Shown here in pieces: positions 16,480 through 57,758 of a DNA stretch of 64,000 nt. The DNA is from Leptolyngbyaceae cyanobacterium. GTDB taxonomy: Bacteria; Cyanobacteriota; Cyanobacteriia; Phormidesmidales; Phormidesmidaceae. The position numbers and the translations under genes were made by a program. The number at the start of each line of letters is the position of its first letter. The first letter of the stretch is position 1. The notes beneath the pieces were generated by a model, which was given only the letters and a program-made list of their open reading frames with translations, did no database searches and had not been told where the DNA came from. The stretch is from NCBI GenBank assembly GCA_965263355.1, contig CBDHHL010000032.1, positions 2,560,001 to 2,624,000 on the forward strand, read 5' to 3'.

Positions 16480-16550
16480 AGAAATTGAGATTACCAAGGG
16501 ACGGGACGAGGATCAACGTTAGCCGGGAAATTTCGGTTAGGTCAGAAGTC

Positions 16551-16688
16551 GGCACTGGTTCCGTGTAATGGGAAAAATGCCTGAAAGGCCTATAGAGTAA
16601 CGATTTTAGCGATCTTCTTCTAGATCGGCTGTATCCCTTGCATTACAAGCATTTTGGCTGAATCATCCCATCAGGCGGAACCAGTCCC
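16551..16688. mobile_element. MITE-like element (138 bp)
   Basis: Terminal inverted repeats GGCACTGGTTCCG...CGGAACCAGTCCC; no coding capacity. Confidence 0.6.
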
Positions 16689-16831
16689 TACTTGAGCGAT
16701 CTGGTCGGGTGAGGTACGAGAAGATGTGAGCGGTCTTGGTTGCTTAACCCTATGATGACATCGTATTGTGCAAGTTGCCCTTGACCTTGTAGAACGCAGC
16801 GATGCAGTCTATCGGTTGAAGCTGACTCAGA

Positions 16832-18521: not shown

Positions 18522-18610
18522 CCATAGAAACAAATATGCGATTTACAGGCTAAAAGCAGTCCAGTGGAATGAGGCAACTGGTACCCACGGGGCATGCAGT
18601 TAAACCAGTT

Positions 18611-18864
18611 AGGTTAAACTTTCTGGATAACTCCGAGCCTGGGGGTATTATCCAGAAACTTTCTGGGTTATTTGCTTATAGGGGAATGGCCCTGACGTAA
18701 GCATAAATCAGTGGCTGAAACCCTTGGAAATTAGTGCTCTGTCATGTCAATCTTGACCTTATGTCAGCGCCATTCGCTTATAGGGTGTTTATCCAGAAAG
18801 TTTCTGGATAACTCCGGCTGGAAGGTATTTATCCAGACAAAGTCTGGATAAACGATAGTTAGCT
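18611..18864 (+). other. array-head element with attI-like simple site (copy 1)
   Basis: Repeated TTATCCAGA-N5-TCTGGATAA palindromes ending in GGATAAA-cgata-GTTAGCT; near-identical inverted copy at 56917-57068. Confidence 0.6.
18684..18775. mobile_element. 92-bp MITE with 10-bp target duplication
   Basis: TIRs GAATGGCCCTGACGTAAG / CTTATGTCAGCGCCATTC; GCTTATAGGG duplicated at 18674-18683 and 18776-18785; empty site visible in the copy near 56995. Confidence 0.85.
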
Positions 18865-18941
18865 CGCGACATCCGGCTCCATACTATAGATTTCAATTAT
18901 GCAAAAGCATACTTTTCAATGAAAAGGAGATTTTACTTTCC

Positions 18942-19859
18942 ATGAAAAAACGAGGAGTTATTGTTGGCCCTTCTCTCAAAAGAAATTCATTTGACGCAGC
19001 CGTGCCAAAAGAAGAGCTAAATAAGTTATTGCTTTATTGGGATAAAATTTCATATCCAAATTTATGCATTGGGAATCCTAACCCGATGATGATGAGTGTG
19101 AATCTGAAAGCGGCTACACATATGCAGCTACTGGTTGATGCGGGATTTCTTTCAGTTGACGATGTCGAAGTTGACCCAGCAACTGTTTTTCCTGATTTCT
19201 GGAGGACTGGAACAATTACAGTTAGTCATCCTCAGGACTTGCTAAAACTCAACGTAATAGGCCAGATTGAGCTTGCAAAAGAACGTCTAAAAAACGGAGA
19301 AATATGGAGTATTGCTCAAACCGGTTTATCTTTAAGCTTCCCTTCTAAACAGCAAGAGGTATCTAATTACCTTACGGAATTATCCTTGCATAATTGCTTG
19401 CCTGCACCGACTCCGGATACATCGACTGAGAAGATTGTTGAGTTTAAGGAAGCTAGAGCTGACGAGCTATTACAACTACGAGAGACTATAGAATCTTTCA
19501 GAAGTGCTATACTAAATTCACAAGAACCAGAGAGAGAAATTGCTCTGATAGGTGAAGAAATCAGCAATTCCCTTGTGACCTTGCATCGTGTGCTAGATGA
19601 AAAGAAAATCGAGCATTTCTTTGAGACATTAAAGGTATATCTGGATATTAAGCCAAATGATTTGGTCACAATTGGGGCAGGGTTACTGCTCACTGGCACA
19701 GGTATTCCAATACAAGCTGGTGCTGCCATTGGATTGAGGGCTAATGTGCTTATCAAAGCGGCTGAAAGGTTAATCGTTGGTGTAGAAAGAGTTCCTGAGG
19801 AGTTAAGAGGATATATGTATTTGTATGAGGCGCAAAAACAAGGAGTAGTTTCTAGATAG
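18942..19859 (+). CDS. DUF6236-like hypothetical protein (cassette gene)
   Basis: LLYWDKI...IVEFKEARADELLQLR pattern; AT-rich; directly after the GTTAGCT core. Confidence 0.6.
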   Translation: MKKRGVIVGPSLKRNSFDAAVPKEELNKLLLYWDKISYPNLCIGNPNPMMMSVNLKAATHMQLLVDAGFLSVDDVEVDPATVFPDFWRTGTITVSHPQDLLKLNVIGQIELAKERLKNGEIWSIAQTGLSLSFPSKQQEVSNYLTELSLHNCLPAPTPDTSTEKIVEFKEARADELLQLRETIESFRSAILNSQEPEREIALIGEEISNSLVTLHRVLDEKKIEHFFETLKVYLDIKPNDLVTIGAGLLLTGTGIPIQAGAAIGLRANVLIKAAERLIVGVERVPEELRGYMYLYEAQKQGVVSR

Positions 19860-20019
19860 GGCAGACGTTGTCATTGATCCCAGCAATTCCAAATTCAAAA
19901 AAGTTTACGTCACAGCCATCAGCTAGTCGTTCCGGAGTTAAAGAGTGTAACCTCCAGCTAACTAACTGTAGCTGTAGCCTCCTAGAAACCTGTAAAATTG
20001 ACTTAAGGAGGAGGAAAAA

Positions 20020-20247
20020 ATGAGCTTATCCATCATTGATCAAGTCATTGAACAGTTAAGTAATATGCCGCAGTCCTTACAGCAGCAAGTTCTTCAATTT
20101 GCTCGTATGTTAGGCCAAGTTAGAGTTCAAGGTACACCTAGCCACAAGCTGCTTAAGTTTGCTGGTTGTATCCAATCGGATGATCTAACCCTGATGCATG
20201 ATGCTATTGAGGAAGGTTGCGAACAGATAGACTTGAATGAGTGGTAG
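20020..20247 (+). CDS. antitoxin (VapB-like)
   Basis: 75-aa ORF overlapping the PIN toxin start; strong RBS. Confidence 0.8.
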   Translation: MSLSIIDQVIEQLSNMPQSLQQQVLQFARMLGQVRVQGTPSHKLLKFAGCIQSDDLTLMHDAIEEGCEQIDLNEW

Positions 20248-20626
20248 CTATTTACTCGATACCAATATCATCATTGGTCTATTTGCTGGGCAAGCATCGA
20301 TTATTAACCATCTTCAGCAATCTGATGAAATTTTTATCCCCAGCATTGCCCTTGGAGAGCTACATTATGGTGCGCGGAAGTCTGGGCGAGTTCAGCAAAA
20401 TCTAGAACGGATTGAAGAGTTTGTTGCAGATGTCACTGTTATTGACTGTGATGTTGCTACCGCTCGACAGTACGGTGACGTTAAGAATCGATTGAGAGTA
20501 AAAGGACGTCCACTACCGGAAAATGACATTTGGATCGCAGCACTGGCTCTACAGTATGATTTAGTATTGGTTACGCGCGATGCACATTTTCAGCATGTGG
20601 AAGGTTTGCAAACCGTTCGATGGTAA
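20237..20626 (+). CDS. VapC family PIN toxin
   Basis: YLLDTNII..GELHYGA..ENDIWIAALA..LVTRDAHF. Confidence 0.95.
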   Translation: MSGSYLLDTNIIIGLFAGQASIINHLQQSDEIFIPSIALGELHYGARKSGRVQQNLERIEEFVADVTVIDCDVATARQYGDVKNRLRVKGRPLPENDIWIAALALQYDLVLVTRDAHFQHVEGLQTVRW

Positions 20627-20639
20627 TTTGCGACAAGCC

Positions 20640-20723
20640 AGCTAACACTGCGTTGCAACGGCGGAGCATAAGCGGTTGATCAAACGCTAAAGTTACTACC
20701 GCCGTTGAACTTCACCGTTAGAG
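20640..20723 (+). other. attC-like recombination site
   Basis: AGCTAAC-actgc-GTTGCAACGGCGG...CCGCCGTTGAAC-ttcacc-GTTAGAG; inverted L boxes with one extra base. Confidence 0.85.
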
Positions 20724-21368
20724 ATTTTCCGAATTTCTCGAGAAATAAGTTTGCAAGTAACTTAGTGTTAACCGTTTAGTTTCAGACACCAAGCGTTGTC
20801 GAAACTTAGTCTCTTGTCCCAGGGAAAGCCACAGAAGCGTCCCAATTGTTTTGACAAGCACGAAGGCGATCGCATGGCAGTCCGATTCTGTTAAAGTTGC
20901 ATCCCATCGAGCGTGCTCACGAGTCCAATCCTCGATGAGCTGGGTATCTAATGCTTCTTCCATCCGTTCGAGTTCTGGCAAAGCCCCTTGGGCTTGGGTA
21001 AAGATGGCGTGATAGCCCGGATGCTCTGCGTAGAAGCGTTCGATCGCATCTACAAGCTCCTCCACGTAATCGGGCAAAGAAATGGGTAAGTCTCTCCCAG
21101 TTGCTGAGGTTAATAAATGTTCGCGTAGGAGCTCCCCATATCGCTCGGCAAGTGCGTACAGTATGGCGGTCTTGTCTGGAAAAAATTGGTAGAGCGTACC
21201 GATGGGAACCTGCGCACGAGCTGCAATTGCATTGGTGGTAGCGGCAGTATAGCCTCCTTCAATGAGAAGTTGCTCAGCAGCATCCAGTATTCGATTAACC
21301 CGTTCTCGACTGCGGGCCTGCCTGGGCTTACGACGCATTTTTGGGGGCTGTGAGGCAGATTCCGTCAT
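20718..21368 (-). CDS. TetR/AcrR family regulator
   Basis: PRQARSRERVNRILDAA..TTNAIAARAQVPIGTLYQFFPDK; likely start ATG 21368. Confidence 0.93.
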   Translation of the reverse strand: MTESASQPPKMRRKPRQARSRERVNRILDAAEQLLIEGGYTAATTNAIAARAQVPIGTLYQFFPDKTAILYALAERYGELLREHLLTSATGRDLPISLPDYVEELVDAIERFYAEHPGYHAIFTQAQGALPELERMEEALDTQLIEDWTREHARWDATLTESDCHAIAFVLVKTIGTLLWLSLGQETKFRQRLVSETKRLTLSYLQTYFSRNSENL

Positions 21369-21452
21369 TCTCAAATTGACTCCATTTGGATTCTTACGGG
21401 AATTAATCCCGCATCTGTTGACAAACCCTAATCTCTTATTGTAGTTTGATGC

Positions 21453-21476
21453 AAACATGAGTTTTTACTCATGTTT
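21453..21476. promoter_or_regulatory. putative TetR operator
   Basis: AAACATGAGT-tttt-ACTCATGTTT perfect inverted repeat in the divergent promoter region. Confidence 0.65.
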
Positions 21477-21725
21477 AGACTGTAGCTACAAATTATGGAG
21501 TTAAGCCTCTAGGGGCGTCCCAAATGACTAAAAGTGATTTCTCATGGCCAACCGACCAAAGGTCAATGGTTCCGTTGGCTAAGAAGAATCGCTGAAATCC
21601 CCAAGCAGCCTAAGTTTGGGTTGTCTGGGGCAAGAAATTCTGAAACCTCTTCTGGGAGAGGTTTACAGCCATTTTGTCTCACGCAACTGAACCAATCTGA
21701 CTGAAGAACCTTACAGGAAAAAGCA

Positions 21726-22946
21726 ATGGATACAACTACCCACCCCTGGCCGACAGGCAGAAGTACACGCGCTGCATTCGAGGAACGATTCGGTTCTGAT
21801 AACGCTGATTTTATGCAAGAGGCGATGCATACCGGCGATCCGCTCGCCGACGCAGTCGTTGAGGCCATCCAAGAAGATAGCCAAGTTCGGGCCCAGCTTA
21901 ACCAAGGCGTGAAAAATGGCTTAGCCTCTGTTGAAAATCCGCATCCGGCTGTCGTCGCTCTGCTGACAGAGTGCGAGACCATGCCGGACCTTAGCCCCTT
22001 CTTGAGCCATGAGGAGCTTCAAGAGGTCTTAAGAAGAGGAAACAGGCCCTGGTACGTTTTCCCGCAAGTTGTTATCGACATAGGACTCTCCGCTGGTTCG
22101 CTGACACAGCTTTACACCTCTCTTCCACTCACCACTGTGCTCAACGGGACAGGTCGGCTCATTGAGGGGGTCGGACGCCGACTTGTAGAAACCTCACACT
22201 GGCTGGATACGGCCATGTACCCCGGCAATATGCTCCCAGGTCGCCCAGGATATGTCGAAACTGTACAGGTGCGCATGATCCATGCCTATGTGCGCTGGGC
22301 TAGCCTGAAAAAAGGCTATGACACAGCTGCTCTGGGTACGCCGCTCTCCCAAAGTGAGATGGGTTTTAGCTGGTACAGCTTTTCGATGACGTGCCTAATA
22401 GCGGCAGAGGAAATGGGATTCAGCTTGACACCAGCCGAGACTGCGGAATTCTATACCTATTGGGGATATCTGGGATATTTGCTCGGTATCAACCCTCGTT
22501 ACTATCTGGGGGTGACAAATCACAAGCAGGCCATGCAGGGCTGCTTAATGGAGGAAATGGTCAAAGGATCTATTCAAAATGACGGTGGTGCTCTGTCGAA
22601 AGCAATGAACACTTCTATTGGGATGGCTGCAGAAGGTGATTTCCTCAAATCAGAAATTGATGCCGATCCCGTAGAGGTTATCGAATGTTTGGTTCATCGT
22701 TTTCACGGTTACACCGTGGCTGAAAGTTTGGGGGTACCGTTTCATACCGAAACCTATTTCAAACTGGGTATGTATGTATCTTCCGTGCGCAGCGAACAAG
22801 CAAAACTGAGAAACAATCCAGAAGAATGGAAGCTCGCAATCAGTGCCAATCTGAAAGCAGCCGCTGACAAGTTGGGTACCGGTATTGGCGGACAAACGTC
22901 CTATCAAGCAGCCGCTGCTGGTACGTTGGACTCGCATGAGATCTAA
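21726..22946 (+). CDS. oxygenase MpaB (DUF2236) family protein
   Basis: GDPLADAVV, TGRL..RRLVET, VRMIHAYVR, PLSQ, W.YLGYLLG. Confidence 0.85.
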   Translation: MDTTTHPWPTGRSTRAAFEERFGSDNADFMQEAMHTGDPLADAVVEAIQEDSQVRAQLNQGVKNGLASVENPHPAVVALLTECETMPDLSPFLSHEELQEVLRRGNRPWYVFPQVVIDIGLSAGSLTQLYTSLPLTTVLNGTGRLIEGVGRRLVETSHWLDTAMYPGNMLPGRPGYVETVQVRMIHAYVRWASLKKGYDTAALGTPLSQSEMGFSWYSFSMTCLIAAEEMGFSLTPAETAEFYTYWGYLGYLLGINPRYYLGVTNHKQAMQGCLMEEMVKGSIQNDGGALSKAMNTSIGMAAEGDFLKSEIDADPVEVIECLVHRFHGYTVAESLGVPFHTETYFKLGMYVSSVRSEQAKLRNNPEEWKLAISANLKAAADKLGTGIGGQTSYQAAAAGTLDSHEI

Positions 22947-23095
22947 AGCGATTTCCAGGAGTAAAACTGCTGGAGAAAGAGTGGGACGTTAAGCGTTCCA
23001 TTCCTTTCCTTTTCTCTAAGGTTTTAGCTTTCAGAAATCATCTGAGTGCTCTGTTGAAAATTCGTGTTGAGAAAGAACTGAAGTAAGAGAAAGTC

Positions 23096-24316
23096 ATGAC
23101 TACAACAACTACGGCAACCCACCCCTGGCCGACAGGCAGAAATACACGCGCCGCTTTCGAGGAACGATTCGGTTCTGAAAACGCCGATTTTATGCAGAAG
23201 TCTATGCATATCGGCGATCCGCTCGCCGACGCAGTCGTTGCAGCCATCTACGAGAACAACAAGGTGCGAGCCCAGCTTAATCAAGGTGTGAAAAATGGCT
23301 TAGCCTCTGTTGAAAACCCGCATCCGGCTGTCGCTGCTTTGTTAACACAGTGCGAGACCATGCCAGACTTCAGCCCCTTCTTGAGCCAAGAAGAGCTTCA
23401 AGCGCTGGTAACAAAAGGTCCTATGTCGTGGTACATCCTTCCGGTAATTGTCACTGACCTCGCACTCACTGCTGGCTCACTCATGCAGCTTTACTCATCT
23501 GTTCCCATTGCAACTATTCTGGCTGCAACAGGTCGGCTCGTTGAGGGTGTGGGGCGTCGAATTGCAGAAACTGGGCAGTGGCTTGATGCGGCCATGTATC
23601 CCGGCAATTGCCTCTTGGGTCGCCCAGGATATGTCGAGACGATTCAGGTCCGTATGATCCATGCTTACATGCGTTCAGGGAGCTTGAAAAAAGGCTACGA
23701 CACAGTGGCATTGGGGATGCCGGTATCTCAATGCGATTTAGCCTATACCTGGTCTAGCTTTACGATAACGTTCCTGATCGCTGCCGAGGAAATGGGGTTT
23801 AGCCTGACGCCATCCGAGAACGCGGAGATCTATAAATTTTGGTGGTACCTCGGACATTTACTCGGCATCGACCCCCGTTTTTATGTCGGGATCACAAACC
23901 ACAATCAGGCAACGCAGAGCTTCTTAATGCAGGACATGGTCAAAGGCAATATCGCAAGTGATGGCGGTCTCCTGGCTAAGGCAACCAACGATATTACTGT
24001 CCAGGCTTCGGCAGATAAGTTCCAAATCGATGCCGATCCCATGGAGGTTATGGAAAGCTTGGCCCAACGTATTCATGGTCAAGCCGTTTGTAATAGTTTG
24101 GGGATCCCCTTTCATGACGAAACCTATTACAAGCTACGTTCGTTCATAGCAGTACTACGTAGCGATCACGCAAAGCTGCGAAACAACCCAGAAGAATGGA
24201 ACCTAGCAATCAGTGAGAATCTCAAGGAAATCTCCGATCGCTTAGGTGCTGGTATTGGTGGGCCGACATCCTATCAAGCTGCCGCTGCTGGCACGTTAGA
24301 CTCCCATGTAATCTAA
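23096..24316 (+). CDS. oxygenase MpaB (DUF2236) family protein, tandem paralogue
   Basis: Same motifs; near-identical termini to 21726-22946. Confidence 0.85.
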   Translation: MTTTTTATHPWPTGRNTRAAFEERFGSENADFMQKSMHIGDPLADAVVAAIYENNKVRAQLNQGVKNGLASVENPHPAVAALLTQCETMPDFSPFLSQEELQALVTKGPMSWYILPVIVTDLALTAGSLMQLYSSVPIATILAATGRLVEGVGRRIAETGQWLDAAMYPGNCLLGRPGYVETIQVRMIHAYMRSGSLKKGYDTVALGMPVSQCDLAYTWSSFTITFLIAAEEMGFSLTPSENAEIYKFWWYLGHLLGIDPRFYVGITNHNQATQSFLMQDMVKGNIASDGGLLAKATNDITVQASADKFQIDADPMEVMESLAQRIHGQAVCNSLGIPFHDETYYKLRSFIAVLRSDHAKLRNNPEEWNLAISENLKEISDRLGAGIGGPTSYQAAAAGTLDSHVI

Positions 24317-24331
24317 ATTCTGTTCCAAATT

Positions 24332-24628
24332 ATGAACAAAAAATTCTATGTAACAGCAAAATTCACAGCCAAAGAGACTCGGGTGACAGACATGATCACT
24401 CTGCTTCAGAAGCTTACAGCCGAGACAAAATCTGAAGCTGGGTGTTTGGATTATGGCTACTACCAATCTTCAGAAGATTCCAGAGTTTTTACCTCGATTG
24501 AAGTATGGAAAACCCCTGAAGCTGAAGCCGCTCATTGGGATACCCAACATCTGCAAGATGCCCTAACCCAGTTGCCTAAACTCATAGATGGCGAGGCTGA
24601 AGTGACGAAATACCACAAGATCGCTTAA
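24332..24628 (+). CDS. antibiotic biosynthesis monooxygenase / putative quinol monooxygenase
   Basis: TKSEAGCLDY..F.SIEVW...AHWDTQH. Confidence 0.88.
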   Translation: MNKKFYVTAKFTAKETRVTDMITLLQKLTAETKSEAGCLDYGYYQSSEDSRVFTSIEVWKTPEAEAAHWDTQHLQDALTQLPKLIDGEAEVTKYHKIA

Positions 24629-24667
24629 TCCAATTGAAGGAAATAAGCCAACAAAAAGGAGTTGCCC

Positions 24668-25462
24668 ATGAGTAAAGTCATTATGATTACGGGTGCGGGT
24701 TCCGGTCTGGGAAAAGGAGCAGCCTTGGGACTTGCGAAAAAGGGACATAAGGTCATCGCGGGAGTACAAATTTGGCCTCAAGTTACTGCTTTACATGAAG
24801 AGGCGTCGAAATTAGGGGTTGAGTTAGAAGTCTTTAAGCTTGACATTTTGAGTGAAGTAGATCGACAAAAAGCCCTCACCTATGACATCGATATTCTTGT
24901 CAATAATGCAGGTATTGGGGAGACAGGACCGATCGCTGAAATCCCGATTCAGCTTGTGCGAAATGTTTTCGAGGTCAATGTATTCCGTACGTTGGAACTC
25001 ACTCAGCCTTTTGCTAAAAAATTCGTCGAAAAAGGCAACGGTAAGATTATCTTTGTGTCTTCGATAGCCGGACTTTCAACCTATCCCTTTTTTGGCCCTT
25101 ACAATGCCTCGAAGCATGCGCTAGAGGCGATCGCCCAGAGCATGAAAGATGAATTGAAAGAATTTGGTGTTCAGGTCTGCACCATTAATCCTGGCCCCTA
25201 TCGCACTGGATTCAATGACCGCATGCATGACTCAGTCTTTCAGTGGTATGACCCCAAATCTAACTTCACCAAAGAGCAGCCGATGCGAGACAGTCAAGCA
25301 GATACTGCATCTGAAAATGGGCAGTTTGACCCTCAAGCCATGATCGATCTAATGGTTGAGACGATTCCAGTCGAGCACCACAAGTTCAGAACTATGTTGC
25401 CGGAGGCGTTTGTGGAGTTCTGTCAGGATTACCAGAAGCGGATGTGGGAGGAGGAAATCTAG
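24668..25462 (+). CDS. SDR family oxidoreductase
   Basis: TGAGSGLG, NNAG, YNASK. Confidence 0.93.
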   Translation: MSKVIMITGAGSGLGKGAALGLAKKGHKVIAGVQIWPQVTALHEEASKLGVELEVFKLDILSEVDRQKALTYDIDILVNNAGIGETGPIAEIPIQLVRNVFEVNVFRTLELTQPFAKKFVEKGNGKIIFVSSIAGLSTYPFFGPYNASKHALEAIAQSMKDELKEFGVQVCTINPGPYRTGFNDRMHDSVFQWYDPKSNFTKEQPMRDSQADTASENGQFDPQAMIDLMVETIPVEHHKFRTMLPEAFVEFCQDYQKRMWEEEI

Positions 25463-25825
25463 CATTCCTACTTGCAACAGAGTGTTCCAATTGCGAGATG
25501 AGCAAGAAGCCCAATATTCTCTCCAGCTTTCATTTCCTTCCGCTAAAGAGGCTTTATGTTGTGGTGATTTTGAGTCGTTTTTTAGGGCTGTTGCGGTTGC
25601 TAGAAGAGGTGGCCGAGTTTGCTGATTTTTTGACGTCTCCGATCGGCTCAACAGTCATATTTTGCATGCTGAGCGATCAGGTCTTTGTTCTGATGGGCTG
25701 CAATATTCCATCATCGGCAATCCTGTCAAGCACCGTTGCGCTTGCACTTCATTGCATGATCGATCGCCGTTAGACTCGCATGTGCTCTAAACGCTCTACT
25801 ACAAATTTATATTGAGGAAGAATCC

Positions 25826-26269
25826 ATGAAAGCTACAGCGTCACTCAAACACATGGGGACCCTGACAGTGAGGCTCGGAGATGAAATCGTTGTTGGCGAC
25901 GGACCCAAGGGCACCCGCCACGTCATAGATGTGCGTTCAGCCGAGTTGGTTGCTGAGGGCATTTATGCAACGCTTGCCACCAACGATGCTGCCGATTGGC
26001 TCACCCTCAGTGACAACGGTTCCCTCGGGGCGATGGATGTCAGGCTGACGCTCAAGACTGACGATGGCGCGTTTATCTACGCCGAATATGCCGGGCGTAT
26101 TGAGATGGAAAAAGGTCTACTAGCGACCGCACCGACATTCCAGACGGGTAGTGAAAAATATGCATGGCTCAACCGGGTGCAGGCTGTCGGAGCAGGCATT
26201 GTAAACGATGACAACTCTCTCCTCATTTACCAGCTCTATGAAGTGGTCATCGCGGTTGATAGTGATTGA
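25826..26269 (+). CDS. DUF3237 family protein
   Basis: GPKGTRH..ADWL..DVRLTLKTDDGAFIY..PTFQTGSEKYAWLNR. Confidence 0.85.
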   Translation: MKATASLKHMGTLTVRLGDEIVVGDGPKGTRHVIDVRSAELVAEGIYATLATNDAADWLTLSDNGSLGAMDVRLTLKTDDGAFIYAEYAGRIEMEKGLLATAPTFQTGSEKYAWLNRVQAVGAGIVNDDNSLLIYQLYEVVIAVDSD

Positions 26270-26525
26270 TGCGATCGCTCAGCGTAAAACCGCTACTCGT
26301 CTCTCCTCATATCTGCTTCTGATTAGGAAGTATTTGTATTCTGGGGTCTCTGTAACCTTGAGACTATCTATTCTGTTTAACCACTCTCAATTTTTAAGGT
26401 TGTTGCGGCTGCTAGAAATAGATCATTTTTCTGCATGTCTCAACCACTCATCATGGTGGACACGTTCTCCCAAAGCGTCATTCATTTGCCATGTGACAGT
26501 TAATCCTAGAAAAGGAAACCTAGAG

Positions 26526-27770
26526 ATGGATCAAAGTTCATTTGTTGATGCATTGACCGCTAAGGCTGGCTCTAAATTTGTCCTTTGGCAAGGATCAACC
26601 GCTGAGACACACCCGCTCATTGGTTATATCCGTACCAACTGGAGTCAGGATCCTTACTCCTTTGGGTCCTATTCCCATGTAGCCAAAGGATCCAGCCAAC
26701 GGGATCGGGGTGTGATTGAAGCTCCCATCGACAATCGGATTTTCTTTGCTGGGGAAGCAGTCCACCCGAGATATAACAGCAGTGTGCATGCCGCCTATGA
26801 ATCAGGTCTGAGGACGGCAAAGCGAGTTGGCAAAGCTAACGTTGGTCGCATCGCGATCGTTGGTGCTGGTATCAGTGGCCTCGCTGCGGCACATACGCTG
26901 GCTAACCACGGTCTTGATGTCACCGTCCTGGAAGTAAGAGATCGAATTGGGGGACGGGTCTGGACAGATCGAGGTCTCGGGACGGCGGTGGATCTGGGTG
27001 CTAGCTGGATTCACGGAACCGAGGGCAATCCGATCATGAGGCTGGTTGATGCCGTTGGCCAAGAGGTTGTACTCACGGAGAATAACCGCCGCATCATAAA
27101 GGGGCGAGGGGGACGAGTCATGACTGACAAGGACGCCCCGGACTGGTTGGAAGAGGTCCTTGTTACTCAGCATACTGCAGCAACTGCGAGGAACAAGCTC
27201 AACACTTGGCATTACGCGCTTGACAGGCTGTTTCGGGGTGACAATTTTGGCTATTACGGGCCTGATGTCAAGTTTCCCAATGGCTACGATACGATTTTTG
27301 CGGCCTTTGCCGGTGATTACGAGGTTAGGCTTTCATCACGGGTCGAACGGATTTCACTCACTGATGCGGGAGTTGAGATGGGAATCCAAGGTCAAGCCGT
27401 AACTGCCTTCGATGCGGTGATCGTCACAGTCCCTTTGGGTGTACTCAAAAAAGGTGTCATTGCCTTTAATCCCCCCCTTTCTGAACGTAAACAAGGTGCG
27501 ATCGCTCGGTTGGGAATGGGGACGCTTGACAAGGTATATCTGCTATTTAAAGAAGCGTTTTGGGATAATGATCCAACCTGGATAGTTACGCCAGAGAATG
27601 ACTTACCCCCAGGGCAATTTAATAACTGGCTCAACCTTCACCGCTACCTTGGTGTACCCATCATTATGGCCTTCAATGGAGCTACCTCAGCCCTTGATCT
27701 GGCTTGTCTTTCGGATGAAGAAGTGGTTACTCGTGCCCTCCGTACCCTTGAGATTGCTTATCCTGTTTAA
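26526..27770 (+). CDS. flavin-containing amine oxidase, circularly permuted
   Basis: WSQDPYSFGSYS and FFAGEA..VHAAYESG precede the GAGISGLAAA / RDRIGGR / DLGASWIHG motifs; likely start ATG 26526. Confidence 0.85.
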   Translation: MDQSSFVDALTAKAGSKFVLWQGSTAETHPLIGYIRTNWSQDPYSFGSYSHVAKGSSQRDRGVIEAPIDNRIFFAGEAVHPRYNSSVHAAYESGLRTAKRVGKANVGRIAIVGAGISGLAAAHTLANHGLDVTVLEVRDRIGGRVWTDRGLGTAVDLGASWIHGTEGNPIMRLVDAVGQEVVLTENNRRIIKGRGGRVMTDKDAPDWLEEVLVTQHTAATARNKLNTWHYALDRLFRGDNFGYYGPDVKFPNGYDTIFAAFAGDYEVRLSSRVERISLTDAGVEMGIQGQAVTAFDAVIVTVPLGVLKKGVIAFNPPLSERKQGAIARLGMGTLDKVYLLFKEAFWDNDPTWIVTPENDLPPGQFNNWLNLHRYLGVPIIMAFNGATSALDLACLSDEEVVTRALRTLEIAYPV

Positions 27771-27814
27771 GTCAGAAAGTATACTGATTCTTCAAATGCA
27801 GGTGGAGCTTAAAA

Positions 27815-28447
27815 GTGACTGATATGCCGATTCAACGTCTAATGCGACTCAGCGACATTATTTTCGCCGTAGCCATGACCATTCTGGCTATCTTCTTTGA
27901 TCCTATACCGCTGGATAACATCTCACCGGAAACAGCAGCTCAATTGCTTATACAGCAGTTACCGGATCTAGGAATTTATGCCCTGACGTTTATCACTCTG
28001 GCATTCTATTGGTTTACCCATGTGCATCAGTTCAAGCACTACCAAAGGACCGATGCGGTTCATACGTTCTTGACGCTGTTTTCCCTCTTATTTGTAGTGC
28101 TGTTTGCCTATGCCAGTGATCTCTCAGGAGCTTATGAGGGCGTATTTGCCATCAATCTGTTCTACAGCATGGCAGCGATAGGGGTGGGTATTTTTTCCAC
28201 TGCTGCGTGGATTTATGGCACTCAAAATCGACGGCTAGTGGCACCTGAGTTGTCCGACGAAACCATTCGCCACATTCGTCAAGAAAGCTATATTGAACCC
28301 AGTATTTATCTACTGGCAATTGGGACAGGTTGGCTGGTTTCCTGGGGATGGAGCATCACTGTGACATTAGGTTTTCCGATCGCTTTTCTGATTCAGACAA
28401 CGGTGTCTCGCCGCCAAACAGAAGAAACTAAAGTTGCCTTGGAGTAA
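27815..28447 (+). CDS. TMEM175 family (DUF1211) channel
   Basis: RLMRLSDIIFAVAMTIL (FSD-like), YWFTHVHQF. Confidence 0.88.
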   Translation: MTDMPIQRLMRLSDIIFAVAMTILAIFFDPIPLDNISPETAAQLLIQQLPDLGIYALTFITLAFYWFTHVHQFKHYQRTDAVHTFLTLFSLLFVVLFAYASDLSGAYEGVFAINLFYSMAAIGVGIFSTAAWIYGTQNRRLVAPELSDETIRHIRQESYIEPSIYLLAIGTGWLVSWGWSITVTLGFPIAFLIQTTVSRRQTEETKVALE

Positions 28448-28482
28448 TACCAGTTACTTATGATTAAAGGTGATTAGCTTGG

Positions 28483-28566
28483 AGCTAACAACTGCGCAGG
28501 AGCGGACGGATTGGAAATGCTTGATATTTGCCAAGATTCTGGCCGCCGCTCAGCTTCACGTTATGC
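28483..28566 (+). other. attC-like recombination site
   Basis: AGCTAAC..GCAGGAGCGGACGG...CCGCCGCTCAGC-ttcac-GTTATGC; two unpaired bases in the left arm. Confidence 0.85.
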
Positions 28567-28670
28567 GTGCGAAGTTTGAATAGACTGAACATTGGCCTAG
28601 CGTCATACAAGGCTATTTTATATTTGCTGCTTTAAGTAATCACGATACCAGTCTAAAGTGCGCTGAATTC

Positions 28671-29594
28671 CTATTTCCAAAGGTGTTGCATGATCGCCAA
28701 AATAATCCACCGAGACGCATCATCAAATGCTTGGACATATTTGCTATGGTCTACTATAAATGGCTGTTCAAATTCGTACATCATTTCAACAACTTCCCGT
28801 GCTTCAAGCATAAATAATCCACCGAGACGCATCATGCATTTTCCCATACTACTTATTTTGGGCGAACGCTCAGCCAGTTGAAACGCCAGGGTCAGAAACT
28901 GGCGAGTGGTCACTGTTTGGGCATTGGGAACATGCCAAATCTCTCCTAATGCTTCTGGCTTTTCGCCTAATATTACCAGTGCTTTGCCAAAATCATCGAT
29001 AAATGTGTAGGTATGAGGAATATCCAAATTACCGACTGCCTGGGCTGTTTTACCCTTCAAAATTGAGGGGAAGACGCGTTCCCCCATCATAGACACCAAA
29101 ACATTGGGGCCATAGAAGTCTGAACCACGGGCAATGGCCACCTGCACCAATCCCTGTTGATGCGCTTTGAGCAGTGCCTCTGTCATCTGAGCCCGTGTCT
29201 GTCCCTTACGGGTAGTAGCCGCATTAGGCAAGGCTTCATGCATCGCTCCAGAGACTTCTCCATACATGTAGAGATTTTCAGTGACGACAAGTTTAGTCTG
29301 GTTGGTGGCTACCCCGGCGACAATACTGGCCTGTAATTTGGGAAACAGTTCAGTCCACTGGGTGTAGTTGGGCTGGGCACATTGATAAACTACGGTTGCT
29401 CCTCGGGTTACAGCTTCCACCTGGGCGGCATCATAGGCATCTGCTGCAATCACCTCTACAACTTGAGGGACATCGGCTTTACCACTGCGATTGATCATCC
29501 GAATTTGAACATCACGCTTGAGGAGTTCACCCATAACGGCCTTACCCACAGGCCCTATTCCAACGATAACGTGGAGATTTTTCTGAGTTGTCAT
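28671..29594 (-). CDS. NAD-dependent epimerase/dehydratase
   Basis: VIVGIGPVG, ENLYMYG, RGSDFYGP; start ATG 29594; C-terminus looks atypical. Confidence 0.85.
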   Translation of the reverse strand: MTTQKNLHVIVGIGPVGKAVMGELLKRDVQIRMINRSGKADVPQVVEVIAADAYDAAQVEAVTRGATVVYQCAQPNYTQWTELFPKLQASIVAGVATNQTKLVVTENLYMYGEVSGAMHEALPNAATTRKGQTRAQMTEALLKAHQQGLVQVAIARGSDFYGPNVLVSMMGERVFPSILKGKTAQAVGNLDIPHTYTFIDDFGKALVILGEKPEALGEIWHVPNAQTVTTRQFLTLAFQLAERSPKISSMGKCMMRLGGLFMLEAREVVEMMYEFEQPFIVDHSKYVQAFDDASRWIILAIMQHLWK

Positions 29595-29622
29595 AGGGAT
29601 ACTTGAACGAACGACTATGCCA

Positions 29623-29653
29623 ACGGTAGAGTCTCCCACTGTGTGAGGGTCAA
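29623..29653 (-). promoter_or_regulatory. MerR-type promoter
   Basis: TTGACC-19 bp-TACCGT with the dyad CTCACAC-A-GTGGGAG in the spacer, upstream of the epimerase. Confidence 0.7.
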
Positions 29654-29722
29654 GGGGAGGATCAAGTTTTTTGGGTAACTTTCAATGGCTCAATTGGAAC
29701 TTGTAGTTCTACCACCACCGGT

Positions 29723-30391
29723 TCATCGACCCCTCGCTCCGTTTCTCGGCCAAATAAATGGACTTCTTGAATAGCGCCAGTGCTGGTGTAGTGGTTCATG
29801 CCAAATTGCGATCGCAACCTCCATATCAATAGCCGTTTCGGTATATCCCGCAATATGATAAAGAATGACTTCATGACCAACTGGAGTAATTTTATAATGC
29901 TCTAGCCAGGTGTAGAGCTGGTCCATCGTCCGGCATCGATATTCAGGCATATCCGCGACAGTAGGCACTATCAAACGGCTTGAAGCAAGCCAATAGGCAG
30001 ACACCGGTTTAACAATCACATCGTAGGGAGAAGATTGCTCTACTTGCTCAAGTTGCTTTAAGCGCACAGAAAGGCGAGTTAACTGAACCTCAGCATCTTG
30101 AACTTTTTGCAGCAGATCTTGTTGTTTGGCCTGAAGCATCTGTTTTAGCTGAGTATCAGGCAAATCTTTTTTCAGTAAATCAGCAATTTGCTTTAACGAT
30201 AGTCCCATATCCCTCAGAGCCAAGATTTGGTTTAGTCGAGGCAATTGCTCAATGGTGTAATAGCGATAACTGGTTGAGCAATCGATGTGGCAAGGGAGGA
30301 GTAGTCCCAACTCATCGTAGTGGCGCAGCATTCGTACAGACACCCGCACTAGTTGAGAGAAATCACCAATTTTTAACAAAGTATTTCCCAT
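29723..30391 (-). CDS. MerR family regulator with truncated GyrI-like domain (possible pseudogene)
   Basis: LKIGDFSQLVRVSVRMLRHYDELGLL..YRYY; effector domain ends early. Confidence 0.8.
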   Translation of the reverse strand: MGNTLLKIGDFSQLVRVSVRMLRHYDELGLLLPCHIDCSTSYRYYTIEQLPRLNQILALRDMGLSLKQIADLLKKDLPDTQLKQMLQAKQQDLLQKVQDAEVQLTRLSVRLKQLEQVEQSSPYDVIVKPVSAYWLASSRLIVPTVADMPEYRCRTMDQLYTWLEHYKITPVGHEVILYHIAGYTETAIDMEVAIAIWHEPLHQHWRYSRSPFIWPRNGARGR

Positions 30392-30474
30392 CCCATCGTT
30401 TGCCAGATCTGGAAAATGAATTGAACAAATAGTCATGAAGATCAATGTCCGAGCAAGACAATTGACAAGTGTTT

Positions 30475-30858
30475 TCACATACGGCGTCGACGCATGACCA
30501 TAGAATGCCACGGAATAAACGCAAGAACACTGATTTCGACCACCGTCGCAACAATCATCGGCGGGTCAGGGAGTCCGACCTGGCTCATAGAATAAAGGCG
30601 AGCCACACCACCAAGCGCCATCGTAATGAACATAATCCGCATTACCGGGCCTGCAATCTCCAGATTGCGCACGCACCAAATGGTCAGAAAGAACACAAGG
30701 GTGAACCAAATCGCGTAGAATCGCAGCTGATTGTCGAGATTGGCGGTTACTTGATCTGTCGGAACGAACCGCCCGGCACCGAAGATAAAGTTGATGATCC
30801 CAACCATCAGTGGAATCGTGGCGACAACGAGCATTGTGATCTGAAGGGTACGTCTCAT
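30475..30858 (-). CDS. DUF4345 family membrane protein
   Basis: LDNQLRFYA..LGGVARLYS...G.P. Confidence 0.8.
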   Translation of the reverse strand: MRRTLQITMLVVATIPLMVGIINFIFGAGRFVPTDQVTANLDNQLRFYAIWFTLVFFLTIWCVRNLEIAGPVMRIMFITMALGGVARLYSMSQVGLPDPPMIVATVVEISVLAFIPWHSMVMRRRRM

Positions 30859-30995
30859 AAATTGACTTCCTTTGATGATTACATTCCAAAGCACTTTGCG
30901 ACAATTCTTTAGAAGGCCGCTTTAGGCGTAGCTAATTTGAAAAACATTACGCATTTGCTTTATGACATAGGCACTCAATGCCATAAGTTTTCCTG

Positions 30996-31034
30996 AATCT
31001 GAACACCGATCAGAATATGATCGGTGTTCAGATT
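30996..31034. promoter_or_regulatory. putative TetR operator
   Basis: 17-bp perfect inverted repeat AATCTGAACACCGATCA-gaata-TGATCGGTGTTCAGATT between divergent genes. Confidence 0.7.
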
Positions 31035-31079
31035 TGTCAAGAAGGTACGATGTGAAAGTTGCAGGGAAACGTTTTAAAG

Positions 31080-31676
31080 ATGCGAACGGATGAACGAGAA
31101 CGCTCTGCCTATCATCACGGTGACTTACCCCGTGTCCTGCTGGCAAAAGCAGTCGAGTTGCTCGATGAACGCGGTGTTGAAGGATTTAGTCTGCGCGAAG
31201 TTGCTCGTCGGGCCAAAGTCGCTGCAGCTGCTCCATCTCATCACTTTGGGAACGTTTCGGGCTTGCTGACTGCCGTCGCGACAGAAGGCTTTCGACAATT
31301 GGCTTCAGATTTCAAAGATGTGCTCAAGCAAGATTTAGAGCCGGTAGAGCAGGTTATTGGTATGTGCGAAGCCTACATCAATCACCATCAACGATACCCT
31401 GGTACAGTTTCGATTATGTTTCGTCGGGAGCTTCTGGACAATAACAATGCTAGCCTTTTGGAAGTGCGTCCCAAGTCGCTCCATTTGCTAAAGGACGCAG
31501 TGCGTAGTGCTATTTCAGAAGATGCATCAGGAGAGCGGGTTGACTGGGTCGCCAAGATTTTATGGGCAACGATGCATGGCCTGGTCACGCTGCAGATGGA
31601 AGACAGTGAGATGCTGAGCGCACGAGTCGCATTTGCGGCACGCTCTGTGCTTGCTGGCTCCGATTCTAAAATCTGA
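31080..31676 (+). CDS. TetR/AcrR family regulator (WHG-type)
   Basis: YHHGDL..FSLREVARRAKV..HHF; WATMHGL. Confidence 0.92.
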   Translation: MRTDERERSAYHHGDLPRVLLAKAVELLDERGVEGFSLREVARRAKVAAAAPSHHFGNVSGLLTAVATEGFRQLASDFKDVLKQDLEPVEQVIGMCEAYINHHQRYPGTVSIMFRRELLDNNNASLLEVRPKSLHLLKDAVRSAISEDASGERVDWVAKILWATMHGLVTLQMEDSEMLSARVAFAARSVLAGSDSKI

Positions 31677-31739
31677 ATAACATTGTTAATTAACTCTATT
31701 GTGCAATGGGGCTATATAATATTGAACTTTGCGTTATGA
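31675..31739 (+). other. degenerate attC-like site
   Basis: GAATAAC at the TetR stop ... TTGAACTTTGC-GTTATGA; right half resembles 20705-20723 but the arms pair poorly. Confidence 0.4.
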
Positions 31740-31837
31740 GCACTCTGTTTGGCCCTTGAGGCACAGGCTATAGACAGAAAGAGAGATAAGCGATAGCTTA
31801 CCTCTCGGTGCGTGAATAAACGTCTGGGCAGATTTTT

Positions 31838-39497: not shown

Positions 39498-40976
39498 AGA
39501 ATCTATGCAAGCCGTGAGAGGCTATAGAATCCAGCTATCCCCTCTTACACTTGGAGAAACGTTATGAAGATTCTAGCGATTGACCTGGGCAAATTCAACT
39601 GTGTATCGTGTCTGCTGGACACGGAAAGTAACGCGAGTGAATTTGATACGTTTAAGACGTACCGACGGGAATTTAAAGAAATATTACATCGTACTCAACC
39701 CCACTTGGTAGTAGTGGAAACATGTTCGATTACCGGATGGGTGCATGATCTGTGTGTTGCTGAAGACTATCAAGTACTGGTGGCCGATCCGAGTCAGGAG
39801 GCGTGGCGTTGGAAAAACGTCAAACGCAAAACGGATAAAGACGATGCACTGAAGTTAGCAAAACTGGCGGCTCTCGAGCAGATCAACCCAGTGTACGTGC
39901 CTGCACCAGAGACTCGACAATATCGGCACTTGGTGAAGTATCGAAAAGTGGTGGTTTGGCGTATCAATCGGGTTCAAAATGCGATTCGTGCGTTGTTTGA
40001 TCAACACGGGGTGAAAATACCATCAGGTCACCGAGCCTGGACCATCCAGGGGATTGACGAATTAAGCCAACACCGCCGAGTGCTGGCGGAGTGCGATGAG
40101 CACAATCTATGGCGTGGGGAATTAGAGTTAGAATTAACGATGCTGGACCAACTATGGGAGCACCTGGCAACCATTGAACGGAAATTAGAAATACTCGCAA
40201 AGCAGGAGGAGCGCATCCAACTATTGCAGACCATTCCTGGGGTTGGTCGTAAAACAGCCGAAGTGATTGTCACTTGTTTGGATGATCCGAAGCGATTTGA
40301 AAATTCGCGGCAAGTGTGTGCCTATGCTGGATTAATACCCCAACAACATCAATCCGGACAAACCAATCGCTTGGGTAAGATTACTAAACGGGGACCAAGA
40401 TTACTCCGAACGGCATTAGTGGAAGTGTCCTGGCTGATGTTGCGTCACAACGAATGGGCGGCAGCTACTTATGCACGCATTAGTGGAGGACAGAAGACCC
40501 GCAAGAAAACAGCGATTGTAGCCGTTGCCCGGAAGTTGTTGGTGCGATGTTGGGCGATGTTGTTACACAACCAGCCGTGGAATCCAGAGTTAGCTCAGCC
40601 AACACCATAGATAACAAAATTTAGAAGAGAGATGGAGAGAACAAAGTGAGACTCTAGCATGAGCTTGAAGCTTCACGTAATCTGAAACAAGGTTGCCCTA
40701 ACGTTCGCGTAGCGTCTCCGTAGGAGTTATAAGCCATGCACCTTTGTAAAAACTCTTGAGACAATGCAATAGAACACACGTTCAAATAGCATTGACACCT
40801 CGGATAGTCGGTTAAATCCACTTTGCCCTCATTAATTCTCAATCAAAAAGACAGTCCTAAGAACAAAGGTAAATCATCTTGACTAACAACAAGATGAGAG
40901 ATTGATGTGGATAGAAAATGAGAGACTCTCCGAAAAAAATGCCGAAACCCACTTGACACGTTCACGGCTTCATAGT
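39498..40976 (+). mobile_element. IS110-family (IS1111-like) element, copy 1, inserted in attC
   Basis: Ends defined by identity with 48638-50093; sub-terminal IRs CTATGCAAGCCGTGA / TCACGGCTTCATAG; long 3' non-coding region; no target duplication. Confidence 0.92.
39564..40610 (+). CDS. IS110 family transposase (DEDD recombinase)
   Basis: LAIDLGK, VVET, KTDKDDA, TIPGVG, AYAGLIP..QSG, AVARKL. Confidence 0.96.
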   Translation: MKILAIDLGKFNCVSCLLDTESNASEFDTFKTYRREFKEILHRTQPHLVVVETCSITGWVHDLCVAEDYQVLVADPSQEAWRWKNVKRKTDKDDALKLAKLAALEQINPVYVPAPETRQYRHLVKYRKVVVWRINRVQNAIRALFDQHGVKIPSGHRAWTIQGIDELSQHRRVLAECDEHNLWRGELELELTMLDQLWEHLATIERKLEILAKQEERIQLLQTIPGVGRKTAEVIVTCLDDPKRFENSRQVCAYAGLIPQQHQSGQTNRLGKITKRGPRLLRTALVEVSWLMLRHNEWAAATYARISGGQKTRKKTAIVAVARKLLVRCWAMLLHNQPWNPELAQPTP

Positions 40977-41056
40977 CGTGAAGCTGAGCGGCGGCCAGGA
41001 ACTTTGGTATCATCATCTAAATTTTACCCTCCGTCTGTTCCTGCGCAGTGTTAGCT
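40977..41056 (-). other. attC-like site interrupted by IS copy 1
   Basis: Minus strand AGCTAAC..GCAGGAACAGACGG...CCGCCGCTCAGCTTCACG; the remaining TTAATC of the core is at 39497-39492. Confidence 0.85.
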
Positions 41057-41087
41057 GGTGTTCTCCACAAACCGTATCGTATTGATC

Positions 41088-41576
41088 TTAGGGCTCTTGG
41101 GCAAGGACTAAGATACGCTGATACAGCAGGGGACTGACACGAAAACCAGCTTGGTTGATCAAATCATCCATAATGGGTTGCACTTGGGGAATGAGGTTTC
41201 TTTGCTTGGCAACGAGCAAAATACCCAGAATACCGATTATGGATAGTCCAAGTTGAAGGGCTTGTTGCCGTCCCAAGCGCTCATCAATAAGCAGATCATC
41301 GGCTTGTAGCTCAAGTGCCAGCGCGATCGCACTCGCTTCTCCTGCATCCAGTCCTCGGTCTTGTTGTAATTGATTGGCAAGTTGAAGATTGCTAAGGGAT
41401 TGCGTTTGAATCCAGTCTAATTGCAGAATGCTTGAAATGGTTGGATTACTGGCGGTTGCGAGTTCGCTGGCAACAACGTCTGGAATAATTACGGTTTGGT
41501 AAATTGACTCTAGCAGCCAGAGATGATTGACAAGGGCAAGATTGCTGAGGGCAGAAGTATCGCTGACGACGATCAT
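41088..41576 (-). CDS. DUF3368 PIN-like toxin
   Basis: MIVVSDTSAL, LDAGEASAIALA, LLIDERLGR. Confidence 0.9.
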   Translation of the reverse strand: MIVVSDTSALSNLALVNHLWLLESIYQTVIIPDVVASELATASNPTISSILQLDWIQTQSLSNLQLANQLQQDRGLDAGEASAIALALELQADDLLIDERLGRQQALQLGLSIIGILGILLVAKQRNLIPQVQPIMDDLINQAGFRVSPLLYQRILVLAQEP

Positions 41577-41833: not shown

Positions 41834-41970
41834 CTGTAAATGGAAGCTCGTTGAGCCTACATTCTCAATTTTAACCTGTGCCTAACTTCAGTTGTGCCAT
41901 CGACTACATAACCCGCAGCAGGAATTATGCCAAATCTTCAAGTTATCACCTCAGCCGAATTCAAGGAGCT

Positions 41971-42052: not shown

Positions 42053-42076
42053 GGCAAGAGCGATCGCACCTCGCCT

Positions 42077-42760: not shown

Positions 42761-42798
42761 GGCGAGGTGCGATCGCTCTACGGCGAGGTGCGATCGCT

Positions 42799-43836: not shown

Positions 43837-43839
43837 TTT

Positions 43840-56916: not shown

Positions 56917-57068
56917 GCTAACTATGAGTTATCCAGACTTAGTCTGGATAAATACCTTCCAGCCGGAGTTATCCAGAAACTTTCTGGATAAACACCTTAT
57001 AAGCAATTAACCCAGAAACTTTCTGGATAATACCCCCAGAGTCGGAGTTATCCAGAAAGCTTTAACCT
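56917..57068 (-). other. array-head element with attI-like simple site (copy 2)
   Basis: Palindromes starting near 56928, 56968, 57007 and 57047; minus strand ends GGATAAC-tcata-GTTAGC followed by the intron. Confidence 0.6.
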
Positions 57069-57518
57069 CGCTTTAATAGTTCAAATAAACTATTGAGCCA
57101 TCTACCAAGACTGATCGTGAGTGTGATGCCTTAGGGGGGCGCTAAGACTATCCTTGTTCGATGGGGTCAATATCTACCGTTTTTGACGGTTAAACCAGTG
57201 AAATGAGCATTTTTCCGGCCAGAAGCATCTCCTCAGTGCCTTGATAACAGCGTGATACAGCCCATTGCTAGCTTGACGAAAGCCTAACCCCCGGTCTAAA
57301 GTAACCCAATGCTGCAAGTGCAGCTGTTCTACTAGAACCTAATAACTTGGCACCATCGGCAGGTGCTGACAACACCTAACCGATGGCTGACCCGCGGATT
57401 CCAGAGCAATCCTTGGGATGGGCTTATTATGCCTCAGCCCCTGCGATTTGCCATACATCGCGGGGGCTGAGCTGTTGGGTTCTGGCTTTCCTTGTCGTTT
57501 CTCTGGAGAACCAGAACC

Positions 57519-57758
57519 ATGTTTCAAGACCCAACCCAGGGCGCATCAGCGCTCACCCGTCAGCCTGACCCGCTGCCAGAATCCTCCTACGAAATGGGAC
57601 GACATCTGCTGCTGGGCAGTTTGACCTTTGTGCAGACCACCATCAAGCTGTTGCATAAGCTCAACTATACTGAGCCCAACGACTGGAGTCGTCCACTACC
57701 CACCGGGCGACCCAATGAGGTGATGGCGATTTTGACTAAAAAAGTGAAGATTAGTTAG
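57519..57758 (+). CDS. small conserved cyanobacterial hypothetical protein
   Basis: RHLLLGS...TIKLLHKLNY.EPNDWS.PLPTGRPNEVMAILTK pattern. Confidence 0.7.
   Translation: MFQDPTQGASALTRQPDPLPESSYEMGRHLLLGSLTFVQTTIKLLHKLNYTEPNDWSRPLPTGRPNEVMAILTKKVKIS

Follow-up and report, generated by a model that had tools for sequence, protein, structure and literature searches.

The 64-kb stretch of DNA analysed here, hereafter the window (64,000 nucleotides of a filamentous Leptolyngbyaceae cyanobacterium, contig CBDHHL010000032.1), carries at 18.6 kb a small array of gene cassettes which is headed by a genuine integron attachment site, attI, without a neighbouring integrase, and which has likely been loaded and reshuffled by an integron integrase (IntI) encoded elsewhere in the cell. 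A probability of roughly 0.7 is given to this reading. The folE-cobW region of the window is 81-88% identical to the genus holding Leptothoe, Adonisia and related Leptolyngbya records; statements at the scale of whole genomes concern such relatives, examined as a genus set of 21 genomes and a family set of 172. Labels denote loci (L), genomes (G) and runs (X) from these relatives and other data.

The head of the array comprises the following features:

18542..18615, plus strand: leader, 75 bp, 75% identity, common only to the attI subtype of L017, L034 and L071.
18616..18860, plus strand: attI, four units of inverted 9-bp boxes with a period of about 40 bp, ending at the crossover G|TT, of which the G is 18858.
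18684..18775, no strand assigned: insertion of 92 bp inside attI resembling a miniature inverted-repeat transposable element (MITE), with 18-bp terminal inverted repeats matching at 16/18 positions.

The original prediction had placed here a head element ending in GTTAGCT, and the start of this heptamer is confirmed at 18858. The window has 12 copies of the head's 9-mer box where 0.52 would be expected, and all of them lie within this head or a second one at 57 kb. A scan for the head pattern across 185,579 species genomes returned 85 stretches, several per genome in this cyanobacterial group and scattered singles elsewhere. Integrases of TIGR02249 were above the cut-off in four of the five genomes tested. 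At three loci (L003, L007, L043) the head is divergent from such an intI (472 bits, cut-off 265), with 221-222 nt between crossover and start codon, and the proximal 81 bases of the 18.6-kb attI share 73 identical positions with each of these intI-linked copies; elsewhere intI is frameshifted (L070) or reduced to 22-codon stubs (L062, L067).

Among 39 head matches, four reverse-strand or partial duplicates were dropped, leaving 35 copies for alignment and for counting of the strand of attC sites. When aligned on the core, these copies keep G, T, T and A in 35, 34, 35 and 31 cases, and identity falls to 32-47% from +10 on. A hidden Markov model (HMM) of attC, built from sites in the same loci which had first been picked regardless of strand or place, found 38 matches on the cassette strand and 0 on the opposite one within 8 kb downstream of the 35 heads (193 kb), distributed over 24/35 copies, and 0 matches in 173 kb upstream. 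On these sequence comparisons, the element at 18616-18860 is identified as the attI belonging to one clade of cyanobacterial IntI, and homology together with the cassette junctions described below places its crossover at G|TT.

The length of this type of attI is about 140-160 bp, divided into four units of 40 bp which consist of inverted boxes, and the number of units varies among copies from 2 to 4. In the 18.6-kb copy, the MITE-like insert separates the distal units from the two proximal ones, which are intact; it is flanked by a target duplication of 10 bp (18674-18683 and 18776-18785), and other attI copies skip these 102 bases. The leader at 18542-18615 forms the left edge of the element and begins 20 bp past the stop of the MIP gene. 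In L017 and L071, the corresponding non-coding leader, with an internal direct repeat, lies about 350 bp upstream of the crossover, and only its last 75 bp are retained in the window. Further upstream, 16546-16693 is an inverted-repeat element, probably another MITE, which L171 also has, immediately before an orphan attI on the upstream side. A scan for the cassette promoter Pc gave 2 sites for 0.8 expected, with one candidate inside attI that matches at 9/12 positions on the plus strand. Upstream regions of two other IntI clades (L086, L088, L095, L206) contain sites which are likewise built from repeats, and the boxes there have other sequences, which suggests that integrase and site form matched pairs.

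As the head is palindromic, multi-copy and non-coding, it could also be regarded as a repeat of the repetitive extragenic palindromic (REP) or MITE kind, or as a mobile promoter module, rather than a recombination site. This is very improbable: the 35 copies end polarly at G|TT, the distance to intI is fixed, the downstream attC sites have a strand bias, and a deletion series involving a small open reading frame (ORF) accompanies the head, as detailed below. Symmetric ends, with terminal inverted repeats and target duplication, are a property of the 92-bp insert and not of the head, and the intI linkage and core alignment had already largely refuted the idea.

Two attC sites follow the attI on the same strand:

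20640..20723, plus strand: attC 1, intact, crossover G = 20717, 51.8 bits, E 2e-9.
28483..28566, plus strand: attC 2, intact apart from a single additional base in its left spacer, crossover G = 28560, 59.9 bits, E 4e-11.

Both had been proposed as attC-like, and they proved real under a covariance model trained on 21 attC sites from relatives and zero from the window, which was searched with filters off. The model retrieves eight sites in the window, the two above and six on the minus strand (40970-52665), with the next match at 14.6 bits; the HMM returns the same eight, against maxima of 4.6-10.9 bits in shuffled sequence. These models superseded an initial strict scan which had recovered 1 site only. 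When folded, the bottom strand of attC 1 is better than 200/200 shuffles (z -3.9), and attC 2 is unremarkable by energy alone (z -0.8; 44/200 shuffles as good). Paired R and L boxes with extrahelical bases are present in both plus-strand sites and absent from a third site proposed at 31675-31739. The reported identity between the right arm at 28541-28563 and the site at 40977, which is split by an insertion sequence, is exact (23/23) once the IS110 element is omitted.

No intI or remnant of it was matched in the window by six IntI proteins (tblastn, E<=0.01), and an IntI HMM run on its six frames gave a best E of 0.7. The arrangement of a complete integron, in which intI adjoins attI, is therefore missing from the window, and the absence of a nearby intI forms part of the definition of a CALIN, a group of attC sites without an integron-integrase. 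The second head has the same character:

56920..57097, minus strand: second attI, heading the minus-strand array, without intI.
57492..57758, plus strand: ORF of 88 aa, found past the 3' end of intI where integrons are complete; it labels the 57-kb platform as one from which intI was deleted.

The 88-aa ORF trails the 3' end of intI in L007, L092, L094, L097 and L175, and trails 22-codon intI stubs in L062 and L067. In the 57-kb copy of the window and in eight others, 470-630 nt separate it from the crossover, and this interval is free of intI. This series, from intact intI to stub to none ahead of the same ORF, points to clean deletion of the gene, and the 57-kb attI looks like such a deletion at the sequence level. 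The 88-aa protein itself belongs to no Pfam or NCBIfam family, is 91-97% conserved at this locus and may be an integron accessory gene. The 18.6-kb attI lacks this marker, and the copies which share its leader (L017, L034, L071) are also without intI.

Orphan attI sites of this kind are widespread among relatives. A 33-base terminal pattern, searched with <=2 mismatches (reversed-pattern control = 0), matched 50 times in 15/21 genus genomes, with 1-7 copies each, and in 21/172 genomes of the family. A census of 50 distinct copies with flanks (48 from relatives and 2 from the window, a non-random sample) counted 3 beside a full intI, 3 beside a broken one, 35 without intI over >=1.5 kb upstream and 9 with too little flank. 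The near-complete genome G005 has four attI matches, none beside its intI. IntI matches were found in 15/21 genus genomes, and many broken intI pieces are present across the genus. The original prediction that one recombinase loads several dispersed arrays therefore stands as regards the dispersed heads; that a single recombinase does so in trans is what we infer from them. Three copies in one orientation share a 107-kb contig of G004 (C95; L168, L169), none of them beside intI. No mobile carrier of attI was matched in the plasmids or viral contigs searched, and one cyanobacterial plasmid encodes an intI 67% identical, without the head region. In titles and abstract starts, no paper was found on multi-copy orphan attI or on the integron of these cyanobacteria, most subscription journals lying outside the search.

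The behaviour of the 57-kb type of platform in relatives argues for cargo exchange at attI sites which have lost their integrase. Ten copies with its upstream flank (seven sharing >=857 nt, L073 sharing 195 nt, and L083 and L084 being short and possibly second copies in genomes already counted) have no cassette sequence in common in the first 1.5 kb; the one stretch shared there is 101 nt of Uma2, which follows two short arrays. All ten first cassettes differ and begin at GTT. The shortest array behind these heads, in L073, measures about 0.6 kb and the longest, in the window, 17.6 kb; for L113, L140 and L073, continuation as far as Uma2-fur and the zinc cluster is shown. When seven copies are aligned, conservation is 92% in the boxes and 69% in the bases that separate them, compared with 86% in the intergenic DNA next to them and 82% at third codon positions of the small ORF, and 2/1000 random intergenic sets match the conservation of the boxes. 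The simplest reading, on this evidence, is that an integrase acting in trans exchanges the cargo.

Under this reading, a whole platform of attI, intI and small ORF would have been copied or acquired, and the subsequent deletion of intI would have left an orphan; the deletion series exists for the 57-kb type only. By analogy with the known integron reaction, IntI would bind the repeated boxes of double-stranded attI and pair the site with the folded bottom strand of the attC of a circular cassette, the joining at G|TT letting new cassettes enter in front.

Several observations weigh against such an account. The integrase is absent from the 64 kb searched, and we infer its action in trans; six of the 21 genus genomes are without an IntI match, including the head carriers G001, G014 and G020, although these assemblies are incomplete. 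One contiguous 68-nt intergenic stretch is as conserved as the boxes (93%), and the strand-bias count relied on a model derived from the very loci that were counted. The 18.6-kb attI is split by a MITE, the attC of the first cassette is mostly lost and the third site is unrecognisable, so that the array may be decaying. Moreover, two attI subtypes are present behind one and the same flank, and the identity between boxes is below that of the flank; homologous exchange between copies has therefore probably happened too. Finally, the break at 20717 falls on a stop codon, at which homology often ends in any case and where relatives read TGA.

It could accordingly be argued that the orphan attI sites are dead relics, and that differences in cargo arise through homologous exchange of attI and attC repeats, deletion and insertion-sequence activity. 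The two subtypes behind one flank and the contrast of 69% and 86% would fit, as would the changing number of attI units (2 to 4), features of the window (the MITE in attI, attC sites that are truncated, copies of IS110, an intron) and the broken intI pieces of the genus. This explanation stays in contention but is the less likely one, since the ten copies behind the 57-kb flank all have different first cassettes starting at GTT, the boxes and core remain conserved, and the DUF6236 cassette described below has the same first base after two attI types that are unlike each other, a result not to be had from homologous exchange on its own.

Behind the attI, the plus-strand array is organised as follows:

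18858..19962, plus strand: first cassette, with a DUF6236 gene (Pfam) at 18942-19859; of its attC, only a putative left-core remnant is left at 19956-19962.
19963..20639, plus strand: toxin-antitoxin pair of the VapBC type (20020-20247 and 20237-20626), cassette cargo.
20717..28559, plus strand: unit 2, 7.8 kb, bounded by attC 1 and attC 2, with genes for TetR (20718-21458, minus strand), two MpaB/Lcp-domain oxygenases, ABM, SDR, DUF3237, a flavin amine oxidase and a TMEM175 channel.
28560..31732, no strand assigned: unit 3, 3.2 kb, with genes for an epimerase, MerR, DUF4345 (minus) and TetR (plus); lineage-specific, putative cassette.

As had been stated, the first unit begins with GTTAGCT and ends with AGCTAAC, but the perfect complementarity of these heptamers is modest evidence: AGCTAAC is common, being the left core in 6/33 sites of this attC family, and a second copy is found at 19956. 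The latter lies inside the unit, which is probably made of two fused cassettes; this lone AGCTAAC suggests that the attC of the DUF6236 cassette was deleted and the cassette thereby fused to the VapBC-type pair. PADLOC matched 0/6 proteins.

The expectation that variable-region boundaries coincide with GTT cores is well supported, as relatives break from the window at 18858, 20717 and 28560. At the first of these junctions, G159 carries DUF6236 (92% aa identity over the 51 residues available) behind a different attI-like sequence, and homology starts at GTTAGCT; the gene is present in 1/172 family genomes. At the second, G050 matches the toxin-antitoxin pair and the whole of attC 1 and stops at 20721, while contigs of runs X5 and X10 depart from the window at 20723 and 20715; the pair is followed by an attC in G050, G007 and G011. 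At the third, G126 and the runs X4 and X5 all carry TMEM175 and the same attC, and in each of them the match ends at 28563. Cassettes with ends at the cores thus exist elsewhere for the start of DUF6236, the end of the toxin-antitoxin pair and the end of TMEM175.

The two larger units depart from the original picture of three ordinary cassettes, since unit 2 corresponds to a cluster which is found without attC in relatives. In G160 the genes of unit 2 follow one another as in the window, with 93-98% aa identity (TMEM175 65%), one oxygenase gene and 2.4 kb extra, and no attC was found in the 17 kb of it examined or in the cluster of G009. These two genomes match the window from 20717 and 20725 rightwards; leftwards they resemble each other and not the window. 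The core TTA of attC 1 is also the stop codon of TetR, which is TAA in the window and TGA in G009 and G160, so that GTT is absent there; the TetR stop in the core supplies a GTT target, yet this makes the coincidence of the break less surprising. At the other end, TMEM175 carries its attC in 1 of the 14 family genomes which have the gene. With a cluster-like left end and a right end linked to attC, unit 2 is non-cassette on the left and cassette on the right. The attC behind TMEM175 may have recombined with a secondary GTT at the TetR stop, 7.8 kb upstream, to give a circle which would have entered the 18.6-kb attI before the toxin-antitoxin and DUF6236 cassettes; the odds for this course of events are about even. 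Lying between two attC sites, unit 2 is predicted to be excisable. No excision joint at attC cores is among the joints listed for four runs, in whose contigs rare forms are lost. For X4, a joint 18861-28540 was left unused, as it rests on 23 letters of the common attC arm, and a part of unit 2 without cover in the same run was not counted as evidence. A new joining of attC 2 to chromosomal DNA at its left core, considered from G012 and G009, was dropped when G126 proved to have the same gene with the same attC. The amine oxidase ORF (26208-27770) has its FAD-binding start mid-protein (residues 214-282) and an oxidase-like stretch before it, and may be fused or rearranged.

Unit 3 begins with GTTATGC and ends with GAATAAC, as reported, but the decayed attC assigned to its end at 31675-31739 was not upheld: the covariance model gave no match at E<=5 and the HMM none at E<=10, and there is no sign of folding (z +0.3). 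On the plus strand, this interval holds only two cores and a right-arm-like box, and the left arm has no partner for the L box. A similar pattern of cores and box follows 0/30 other ORFs of the window, and run X2 has contigs ending at 31763 and beginning at 31742, both too weak to rescue the site; in 10/13 cases relatives rejoin the window at 31773-31778, in the folE flank, 40 bases past the proposed core. DNA matches to unit 3 were limited to 2/172 family genomes at about 69% identity (weak), with no attC there. Relatives of its TetR in metagenomes are distant (38-41%, 3 loci) and without attC, and those of DUF4345 (7/172 genomes, 22-38%) include none with attC.

It is a serious contender, falling somewhat short of even odds, that units 2 and 3 were never cassettes, and that the integron pieces of a variable island, namely an attI, its one or two small cassettes and TMEM175 as a cassette apart, came into line in one orientation by chance. 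The unit-2 cluster without attC in G009 and G160, the single TMEM175-attC genome among 14, the lack of a supported attC for unit 3, the presence of genes on both strands and the left junction which doubles as a stop codon are all in agreement with it. Set against this, G009 and G160 remain alike for at least 40 bases past the TetR stop and the window leaves them exactly at the core; furthermore, both attC sites are on the attI strand, and the start of unit 2 pairs at 5/7 positions with the left core of attC 2. Returning to loading by an integrase in trans, a bolder extension of it would see in this lineage a distributed integron, in which one or a few integrases serve many orphan attI sites that stay active after clean intI loss, with unit 2 as a snapshot of cassette birth. 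This is doubtful at present; if true, the absence of an intI pseudogene from most CALINs would be explained.

The two arrays had been described as facing each other across the core zinc cluster, and this is correct for the window, where the heads at 18.6 and 57 kb, 91-94% complementary, flank folE-cobW-znu-hemB-fur; the arrangement is not conserved. In relatives, only the 57-kb head was found at this locus. An empty site with the MIP gene adjacent to folE, which had been expected, was observed in 0/13 folE flanks (2.8-38 kb each) and 0/3 MIP flanks (1.5, 2.4 and 16 kb), and the two genes were never neighbours in the stretches examined; the folE flanks contained no head or MIP gene, and the MIP flanks no head or folE. 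By this comparison of sequences, the 57-kb platform is old at this locus and the 18.6-kb one is lineage-specific. Probably the inverted orientation is just the one that is tolerated, because folE and hemB would be inverted, and not deleted, if the arrays recombined with each other.

The minus-strand array also hosts mobile elements. Two near-identical copies of an IS110-family element (RNA-guided transposase, NF033542) lie at 39498-40976 and about 48638-50093, where attC sites have their G|TT crossover; L168 has a third relative, next to an attC, and the guide RNA may be set for attC arms. A group II intron encoding a reverse transcriptase-maturase-HNH protein (about 54580-56916, minus strand) is directly behind the 57-kb attI core in the cassette direction; a 5' remnant (42827-42894) follows another GTT heptamer, and a relative (L071/L167) has the intron behind an orphan attI. 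The segments 41973-42800 and 45208-46120 are a 97-100% duplicate comprising an attC and a Y1 transposase fragment with REP-like repeats. The cargo of this array includes a NotI-like restriction endonuclease with a C5 methylase, and a Tse2-like ADP-ribosyltransferase pair (42931-45003, 46191-47163).

The individual parts of this system (IntI, attI, attC, toxin-antitoxin cassette) are ordinary, and integrons in Cyanobacteria are already on record (Cury et al. 2016, PMC4889954). In the available passages of that study, intI loss is one of four possible origins of CALINs, pseudogenes are near only 15/279 of them (95% without), the attI of most integrons is described as unknown and impossible to search for, and the study leaves open both where integrase-less arrays come from and whether they are active, as well as the making of new cassettes. 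With the attI sequence pinned down, orphan platforms become countable and activity in trans testable with a defined integrase-site pair, and a clean-deletion route becomes visible, in which attI and the trailing small ORF are kept and intI is gone.

The locus works like an integron array; it is not a complete integron and, by the default distance rule, not strictly a CALIN. With CALINs and single attC sites lacking integron-integrases (SALINs), it shares one-strand cassettes bounded by attC and the absence of a nearby intI, and the possible use of a distant integrase is discussed for them (PMC4889954; 10.1101/2022.09.11.507474); it differs from them in that the lineage retains an identified attI in many copies per genome. 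The IntegronFinder default of >=2 same-strand attC sites <4 kb apart excludes the plus-strand array, whose attC 1 and attC 2 are spaced by 7.8 kb and qualify only at the 10-kb setting found in the text seen of PMC4889954, whereas the six-site minus-strand array satisfies the default. Sedentary chromosomal integrons and attI1 (L and R boxes, DR1/DR2), as far as the excerpts consulted describe them, resemble it in the G|TT crossover, the inverted core boxes, the upstream accessory repeats and, in complete cyanobacterial copies, a TIGR02249 integrase divergent from the array; unlike these, the present type of attI spans about 140-160 bp in four 40-bp units, intI is absent at both heads, and chromosomes carry several platforms. 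An archaeal integron preprint, in the sections available, places putative attI only beside intI. Loot et al. (10.1101/2022.09.11.507474) reported that attC recombines with GWT genome sites and that excision occurs outside the insertion point, with no appreciable insertion of attI1 into genome sites, so that the spread of attI is left unexplained by that route. The 20717 junction, which joins attC to non-cassette DNA at GTT, is similar to their insertion and imprecise excision between attC and attG, although the natural product of 7.8 kb is here a putative one. Finally, Xanthomonas CALINs occupy conserved loci away from intI and can be mobilised in trans, according to the passages at hand (PMC12444791); the present arrays are alike in being integrase-less at recurring chromosomal positions, and unlike in that an attI, which those passages do not identify, is documented here as an orphan together with the turnover of its cassettes.

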